Of a stretch of 41,997 bases of DNA, positions 30,045 to 30,329 are shown piece by piece. The notes below the pieces were generated by a model that ran no database searches, had not been told where the DNA came from, and saw only the letters and a list, made by a program, of their open reading frames with translations. The position numbers and the translations under genes are program-made. This DNA comes from a virus. Its lineage: Duplodnaviria > Heunggongvirae > Uroviricota > Caudoviricetes. The stretch's first letter is position 1; every line of letters begins with the position of its first letter. The stretch covers positions 1 to 41,997 of IMG/VR virus record IMGVR_UViG_2698536372_000019, one strand, 5' to 3'.

Positions 30045-30329
30045 GTGGCAAGCATTGCAACAAAAGACAGCATTTGTTCGGGGCACGGAGGATTCCCATC
30101 CAGGCCTCCTGTAGAGAGTGAACCACTACTTAAAGTCAACGGAGTCGAAGTGTTAGTTGATGGTAAGCAATATGCACAGCATACCGATGGAAACAGTACG
30201 CACGGTGGGCAAGCTATATCAACCAGGGCATGGTTTACCGTCAATGGTAAAGGGATCGTATGCGTTGGTGACCCTGTTTCATGCGGATCTACCGTAGCGT
30301 CCGGAGACGGCCTGGTTCAGGTAAGTTAG
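30045..30329 (+). CDS. PAAR-like small protein (94 aa), GTG start
   Basis: repeated ..HGG.. and ..VNG.. segments and VGDPVSCG, typical of PAAR-repeat spike-tip proteins. Confidence 0.45.
   Translation: MASIATKDSICSGHGGFPSRPPVESEPLLKVNGVEVLVDGKQYAQHTDGNSTHGGQAISTRAWFTVNGKGIVCVGDPVSCGSTVASGDGLVQVS

Follow-up and report, generated by a model that had tools for sequence, protein, structure and literature searches.

What is a gene for a phage tail-tip protein doing next to a repressor operator and a pair of lysis genes? The question is raised by an open reading frame at positions 30045-30329 (plus strand) of the window, i.e., the whole stretch of 41,997 nucleotides of viral DNA that was analysed. 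A sequence-only reading had recognised in its 94-residue product the repeated pattern of PAAR spike-tip proteins, and had described the gene as the head of an operon under a C1 operator, in an unusual place for a component of this kind. The frame exists exactly as it was claimed, beginning with GTG, and all the listed motifs are found in its product, namely HGG twice (residues 14-16 and 53-55), VNG twice (31-33 and 66-68) and VGDPVSCG once (74-81). The joint reading proposed here, which we hold to be very probable, is that the frame is the orthologue of upfC from phage P1, that it encodes a PAAR spike tip within a late operon, and that the operator belongs to the divergent uhr-hrdC-dmt operon.

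Judged by its sequence, the window is that of a P1-type phage-plasmid. The stretch from 29900 to 32200 is 96-99% identical to the Escherichia phages P1, P7, RCS47, SJ46 and vB_EcoM-Ro157c2YLVW, with matching annotation. Its neighbours are the RepA iterons, repA and parA in one direction and uhr, hrdC and dmt in the other, and the synteny uhr / upfC-upfB-ppfA-mlp-upfA / oriR-repA, found in the window, corresponds to that of the P1 UpfC orthologue group (Punavirus). The frame is the orthologue of P1 upfC, an already characterised gene, annotated at 64779..65063 of NC_005856 and already bearing a PAAR motif label in RefSeq. The P1 protein (YP_006534; PDB 9vyi chain A) coincides with that of the window in length, GTG start, neighbours and Op68 operator, and a phmmer comparison with 9vyi_A, deposited as UpfC, gave E = 1.7e-60 with 93/94 residues identical (99%), the single difference being conservative (Ala in P1, Ser86 in the window). 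A Shine-Dalgarno-like GGTGA (30036-30040, plus strand), read from the sequence 4 nt before the GTG, is the putative ribosome-binding site of upfC.

The gene opens a plus-strand run (30045-32158) formed by upfC, upfB, ppfA, mlp and upfA, which is followed by an intrinsic-terminator-like hairpin with a T run (32171-32200, plus strand) just after upfA and before oriR/repA; the operon containing a spanin pair that had been announced for these positions is thus a real gene run, and its spanins have the features expected of them. In RefSeq, upfB of P1 starts at an upstream ATG (equivalent to 30281), so that it has 281 aa and overlaps upfC by 49 nt. The start at 30338, which gives a gene of 262 aa (30338-31126, plus strand), is the one backed by homologues (28-47% identity), which align from this ATG; a GGAGA ribosome-binding site precedes it and P1 record OP279344 has the same start. 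No PDB match was found for UpfB by sequence. The next gene, ppfA (31166-31588, plus strand), encodes a predicted i-spanin, in which a coiled-coil-like region comes after an N-terminal transmembrane segment and which has a weak LysB/Rz-like match (E = 0.0013), and mlp (31422-31754, plus strand), which starts inside ppfA in another frame and runs past it (the "overlapped" layout), encodes a predicted o-spanin lipoprotein with an LSGC lipobox. Both products look as the members of a two-component spanin system should, and 8 further P1-like loci show this arrangement. The spanins of P1 have been presented as a prediction, without experimental verification, by a work that names ppfA the o-spanin and mlp the i-spanin (PMC9025707); the transmembrane segment of PpfA and the lipobox of Mlp indicate that these roles are probably reversed. 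The last gene of the operon, upfA (31766-32158, plus strand; 130 aa), is found only in close P1 relatives.

Is the location of upfC, then, a peculiarity of this element? Its placement was surveyed in 38 loci from species-dereplicated genomes and metagenomic contigs. Distant UpfC homologues (27 loci, 32-47% identity) are encoded between gpV and gpW/gp25, with both flanks recognised in 15 of the 27 and gpV alone in 5 more. P2/Mu-like myophages and prophages possess homologous 94-aa PAAR proteins that share the DPVSCGSTV motif with UpfC, and in their clusters the PAAR gene lies between the spike gene (Phage_base_V) and gpW/gp25, whereas in P1-like elements it is followed by upfB and the spanins. 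The T4 gene 5.4 is located close to gene 5 on the T4 map. Regarding the P1-like set (13 loci including the window, with UpfC 49-100% identical to that of the window), a upfB homologue comes directly after upfC in 11/13 loci, being split into two ORFs in one, and a pair of transmembrane and lipoprotein genes of the spanin type follows in most of the 13. A Buttiauxella P1-like element has, in addition, an endolysin-type gene (Peptidase_M15_4; L098 7220-7606) between upfB and the spanin pair, and in an Erwinia aeris element the spanin-like pair (L092 5423-6056) comes directly after upfC with no upfB, so that the absence of upfB there does not break the link between the tip gene and lysis genes. 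The upfC-upfB-spanin cassette is also kept at an identity of UpfB as low as 28% and with a ParM/StbA partition module as the upstream neighbour. The location of upfC is the standard P1 genome organisation and not an oddity of the window. The description of it as unusual holds in the sense that the gene is away from the spike gene, unlike the gpV-PAAR-gpW order, but not in the sense of an isolated tip component, given that it sits beside the gene for UpfB, which is reported to be another tip part, in a cassette conserved across the P1-like lineage. As for the proposed check of whether related phages carry the homologue near baseplate genes instead, the distant loci have gpV and gpW flanks, and most of the P1-like kin keep the upfB-spanin cassette.

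How the gene came to be separated from those of the spike can be approached from the relatives as well. A distance of about 8.6 kb separates upfC from gene 5 in P1, occupied by the oppositely oriented early block that goes from uhr to dbn. In five divergent relatives (L004, L094, L095, L097 and L098), the strand of upfC also carries genes 6 and 5, at 3-5 kb upstream of it and with hrdC and sometimes dmt in between. The upfC operon looks like the distal end of a hub-spike operon that was split by accessory early genes. The wider proposition is possible but unlikely: that the upfC-upfB-spanin cassette is a piece that came off the distal end of an ancestral operon for hub and spike (26-25-7-24-6-5), its company with the spanins reflecting either a link between entry and exit or an accident, and, separately, that the element of the window is a P1 derivative that lost its spike and hub.

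A related question is whether upfC still has anything to cap. Could it be an intact but functionless remnant, carried by a P1-like plasmid that is defective or rearranged? P1 has genes 5 and 6 at their usual place, from which they are absent in the window, and a tblastn search with P1 proteins found no match in the 42-kb window for gp5, gp6, gp24, gp7, gp25, gp26, pmgL-pmgS or pap, with pmgT also mostly missing. Collinearity with P1 extends over 2806-8187 and 19832-41931, and the similarity breaks at about 19830, which is exactly the start of gene 5 in all the sequenced relatives, the 99%-identical Ro157c2YLVW among them; in each of these gene 5 comes directly after dbn. What occupies the non-collinear 11.6 kb (8190-19830) is a mosaic with at least five ant1-like antirepressor copies or fragments and c4/icd pieces, interleaved with mat (12403-13110), a lxc/ulx piece (13286-13558), prt-pro (13624-16600) and a piece from upstream of ref (17067-17459). 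Nonetheless, the window represents 42 kb of an element of probably 80-100 kb, whose remaining part may contain the missing genes, and repeated ant copies are a classic source of misassembly. Furthermore, the window does contain capsid, sheath, tube, portal and terminase genes, and its upfC and upfB, both intact, correspond to alleles under strong purifying selection. On balance, a functionless remnant appears distinctly unlikely. As for the mosaic itself, together with the segment 1-2800, it could stem from a rearranged or defective element or from repeats that were misassembled. Two of its ORFs (17462-18085 and 18073-19227) were considered as spike or hub candidates and discarded, having no PDB match and corresponding to Ant/KilA-type antirepressor genes according to PHROGs and Pfam. 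In the terminal segment, positions 272-1281 are repeated at 1838-2847 with 99.2% identity (tandem period of 1566 bp).

The preferred reading, in which upfC is the tip gene of a P1-type element, still has to account for its expression. The gene had been described as being under a C1 operator, and there is indeed such a site upstream of 30045: ATTGCTCTAATAAATAT, at 29947-29963, matches the consensus in 16/17 positions and has the same sequence as P1 Op68/Odmt. The strand, however, is the minus one, and the site belongs to the leftward promoter Pdmt (sigma-70, for uhr-hrdC-dmt; 29918-29947, minus strand, with coordinates transferred from the P1 annotation), whose -10 box (TACCAT, 29918-29923) and -35 box (TTGTTT, 29942-29947) are also taken from the P1 annotation and whose -35 the operator abuts, just where P1 annotates Odmt/Op68; one base differs from P1 in the whole Pdmt/operator region. 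Operator-like sites are plentiful in this DNA, with 12 in the window at up to three mismatches versus 0.24 expected by chance, including those at 12324-12340, 19746-19778 and 25391-25418, and three of the sites are perfect 17-mers; the overlapping inverted pairs at 19746-19778 and 25391-25418 have the look of bivalent operators. The c1 gene itself was not found in the window using a truncated C1.100 as the query.

Would it still be conceivable that upfC heads an early operon directly repressed by C1 at this operator, the tail tip being made together with the immunity-controlled genes? The operator is real and only 82 nt upstream of the upfC GTG, the P1 record (NC_005856) annotates no promoter or operator for the upfC operon, and a repressor bound in a divergent region of 169 bp could in principle act in both directions. 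Against this, besides the strand and the annotated assignment of the operator, a scan of the intergenic region found no plus-strand sigma-70 promoter overlapping it. The divergent relatives lack such an operator at upfC, and some of them have upfC right after hrdC on the same strand; the search upstream of upfC in these relatives was for a P1-type C1 operator, and their repressors may differ in specificity.

A further contrast comes from the timing of expression in P1vir RNA-seq (PMC8201110 Table S1). The log fold changes at 10 and 30 min were 4.86 and 10.63 for upfC, 4.12 and 11.07 for upfB, 5.57 and 11.25 for ppfA, 4.15 and 10.53 for mlp, and 5.21 and 11.24 for upfA; i.e., 4.1-5.6 at 10 min, versus 8.6-9.4 for the genes under the control of Odmt (uhr 8.62, hrdC 9.40 and dmt 8.85). 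Genes 5, 6, 24, 7, 25 and 26 were at 3.35-4.42 at that time. When compared with gene classes chosen by the analyst, the 10-min mean of the five upfC-operon genes (4.78) is close to that of 35 late genes (4.17; Mann-Whitney, p = 0.18) and apart from that of 15 early genes (8.47; p = 1.3e-4). Because its 10-min values match the late class and are separate from the early one, the upfC-upfA operon is late in infection. The statement that it is under a C1 operator therefore does not stand, the site being Op68/Odmt on the opposite strand and the operon late in P1vir; direct repression by C1, already disfavoured, is very unlikely, and control by C1 would be at most indirect, via lpa.

Which promoter could then drive the operon? 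The late-promoter motif used for the search, AAGTNACTT-N4-TANNNT, was derived from the annotated layout of LP23 (AAGTGACTT-N4-TAAAAT), in which a 9-bp inverted repeat (AAGTnACTT) is followed by 4 nt and a TAnnnT -10 hexamer. The sole late-like match upstream of upfC is AAATAACCT-N4-TAAAAT (29994-30012, plus strand), a candidate for a weak Lpa-type late promoter with 2 mismatches in the window and 3 in P1. About 10.6 matches as good as this one are expected per window by chance, and it is therefore a candidate only, recommended by nothing other than its position and orientation. A sigma-70 match (9/12) at 30006-30034 was rejected: transcription from it would start about 4 nt before the GTG, removing the ribosome-binding site, and its -10 is not conserved in P1. 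Elsewhere in the window, matches to the late layout with 0-1 mismatches are found at 12452-12470, 13782-13800, 5517-5535 (minus strand) and 36265-36283, upstream of mat, prt, pacA and gene 23, which suggests that the late promoters of these four genes are intact in the element.

The early operon served by Pdmt deserves a separate remark. The Dmt methyltransferase ORF (25409-28696, minus strand) encodes 1095 aa versus 754 aa in reference P1, the difference being an insertion of 341 aa (about 27443-28465, minus strand) with Hint and LAGLIDADG domains, i.e., an intein, which begins with Cys, ends in ...VVHN|C and splits the C5-cytosine methylase at its catalytic site (GGTP|CQAF). The insertion is also present in a laboratory P1 isolate (OP279344) and absent from the divergent relative L004. 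A limited literature search at the level of titles apparently yielded no paper describing it.

Turning to the product of upfC, its assignment as a PAAR-type spike-tip protein related to T4 gp5.4 is supported by sequence, profile and fold, and by the solved structure of the 99%-identical P1 protein. By phmmer, the UpfC of the window matches T4 gp5.4 with E = 8.6e-8, and a profile of the UpfC family (28 sequences) retrieves gp5.4 at 2.5e-16 as well as the PAAR proteins of type VI secretion systems (T6SS) VCA0105 (4jiv_D, 1e-12) and c1882 (4jiw_D, 2.4e-8). The Pfam PAAR_motif (PF05488) scores 26.4 bits (E = 8.5e-6) against the protein of the window, just missing the gathering score of 27.0, and matches 27/28 family members at E <= 0.01, with 2.4e-21 as the best value; the literal P-A-A-R sequence was not found in the UpfC of the window. 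Its AlphaFold2 model (pLDDT 97.2) was superimposed by Foldseek on the P1 baseplate chain (TM 0.96), a Klebsiella phage baseplate tip (0.93), T4 gp5.4 (4ku0_D; 0.91, rmsd 1.7 A), VCA0105 (4jiv_D; 0.88) and c1882 (4jiw_D; 0.87), with a probability of 1.00 for the last three. The PAAR-like interpretation, which would have had to be abandoned had no such fold been matched, is thus borne out.

The comparison with T4 also illuminates the metal site. Gp5.4 (4ku0_D, 5iv5_ZA) has the same fold in 97 aa (94 in UpfC) in spite of an identity of only about 27-31%, and its metal site consists of three His and one Cys (PMC12407873). H14, H46, H53 and C80, which are invariant in 28 UpfC homologues and align with gp5.4 residues, are the predicted metal ligands of the UpfC of the window. 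Like P1 UpfC, gp5.4 is a monomer on a trimeric gp5 beta-helix and is dispensable for plaques, although the lysozyme domain of T4 gp5 is missing from its P1 counterpart, and the P1 tip carries UpfB in addition. The relationship is not new: the homology of UpfC to gp5.4 had already emerged from HHpred (Gonzales et al. 2022, PMC9024508), and a preprint on the T4 spike tip reports gp5.4/UpfC as the sole pair of T4 and P1 tail proteins detected by BLAST (PMC12407873).

The likeness to secretion proteins, in turn, invites the thought that UpfC is a bacterial T6SS PAAR protein or effector carrier: some sources name its homologues "Zn-binding protein involved in type VI secretion", its top NCBIfam match is T6SS_PAAR_dom (E = 4.5e-9), and VCA0105 and c1882 share with it the cone fold that sharpens a trimeric spike (TM 0.87-0.88). 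However, their identity to UpfC is 14-22%, UpfC has a phage context and lacks an effector extension, there are no T6SS genes in the window, and the protein has been seen by cryo-EM in the P1 baseplate. UpfC was also ruled out as a T6SS PAAR equivalog, reaching 36.3 bits with NCBIfam NF033420 versus a cut-off of 124 in addition to its P1-type phage-plasmid context, and the idea, already refuted, deserves almost no credit. Other names in circulation are misleading too: many UpfC homologues in NCBI/UniRef are called "alanine racemase", apparently through a misannotation that has spread, and the 97-aa Klebsiella phage baseplate tip protein in PDB 9f4b (chain BA) carries the name "Phospholipase".

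That the frame might be a chance ORF with no protein product, as the GTG start and the 86 ORFs of at least 90 aa in the window (many of them spurious) could make one fear, has virtually no probability left and is already refuted by the start position kept across relatives, by the solved structure of the 99%-identical protein (9vyi_A) and by a dN/dS of 0.02-0.05 (12-14 synonymous versus 1-2 non-synonymous differences between the window and other loci), which therefore removes the objection that the frame could be non-coding. This ratio comes from 83 close loci with 25 DNA alleles; the scan of viral contigs gave only upfC loci 97-99% identical, which served for dN/dS and not for diversity, the varied gene contexts having come from the species-dereplicated genomes. 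In a search of 5.8 billion proteins, 71 homologues were found, nearly all of 94 aa and 55-85% identical, and mostly on contigs of about 80-100 kb; the N-terminus and start position of UpfC are conserved in relatives, most of which use ATG where the window uses GTG.

Does the protein reach the virion, and does the phage need it there? HHpred and the composition of the virion had been proposed as checks, and both are answered in the P1 literature in favour of a PAAR protein, by the HHpred match to gp5.4 and by cryo-EM. In the P1 baseplate, a monomeric UpfC was modelled on the trimeric gp5 spike (PMC12810830; bioRxiv 10.1101/2025.07.21.665459), and UpfB was described as a "tripod" of three trimers at the spike tip, based on medium-resolution density and an AlphaFold3 fit (PMC12810830). 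On the other side, LC-MS/MS of P1 virions did not detect UpfC (PMC9024508). Deletion of upfC in P1 leaves plaque formation intact (Gonzales et al. 2022, PMC9024508), and upfC, upfB, ppfA, mlp and upfA all scored as non-essential in a genome-wide CRISPRi study of P1 (PMC10695390).

On the identity, fold, virion position and late timing of UpfC, which the data demonstrate, the following mechanism can be proposed. UpfC is a small cone of three beta-hairpins, at whose apex a metal ion would be pinned by three His and one Cys, and a single copy of it would cap the blunt end of the spike, a trimeric beta-helix of gp5, in the centre of the baseplate, providing the sharpened tip that would meet the host envelope on sheath contraction; the upfB product would be a second component of the distal tip. 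The genes upfC-upfB-ppfA-mlp-upfA are transcribed late as one rightward unit, alongside other virion and lysis genes, and the C1 operator adjoining upfC regulates the divergent early uhr-hrdC-dmt operon.

For P1, the literature already covers the upfC gene, the PAAR fold of its product, the position of this protein at the apex of the spike and the fact that plaques form without it, and as a discovery the gene matters little. What is useful are the corrections: the C1 operator serves the divergent dmt operon, the upfC operon is late, and its odd position is a conserved feature of P1-like elements. The contrast between the strong conservation of the tip protein and its being non-essential in plaque assays is not specific to the window. 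Finally, the co-transcription of the tip module with the spanins (and, in one relative, with an endolysin) could equally be a historical accident or link the penetration of the envelope at entry with its disruption at exit.
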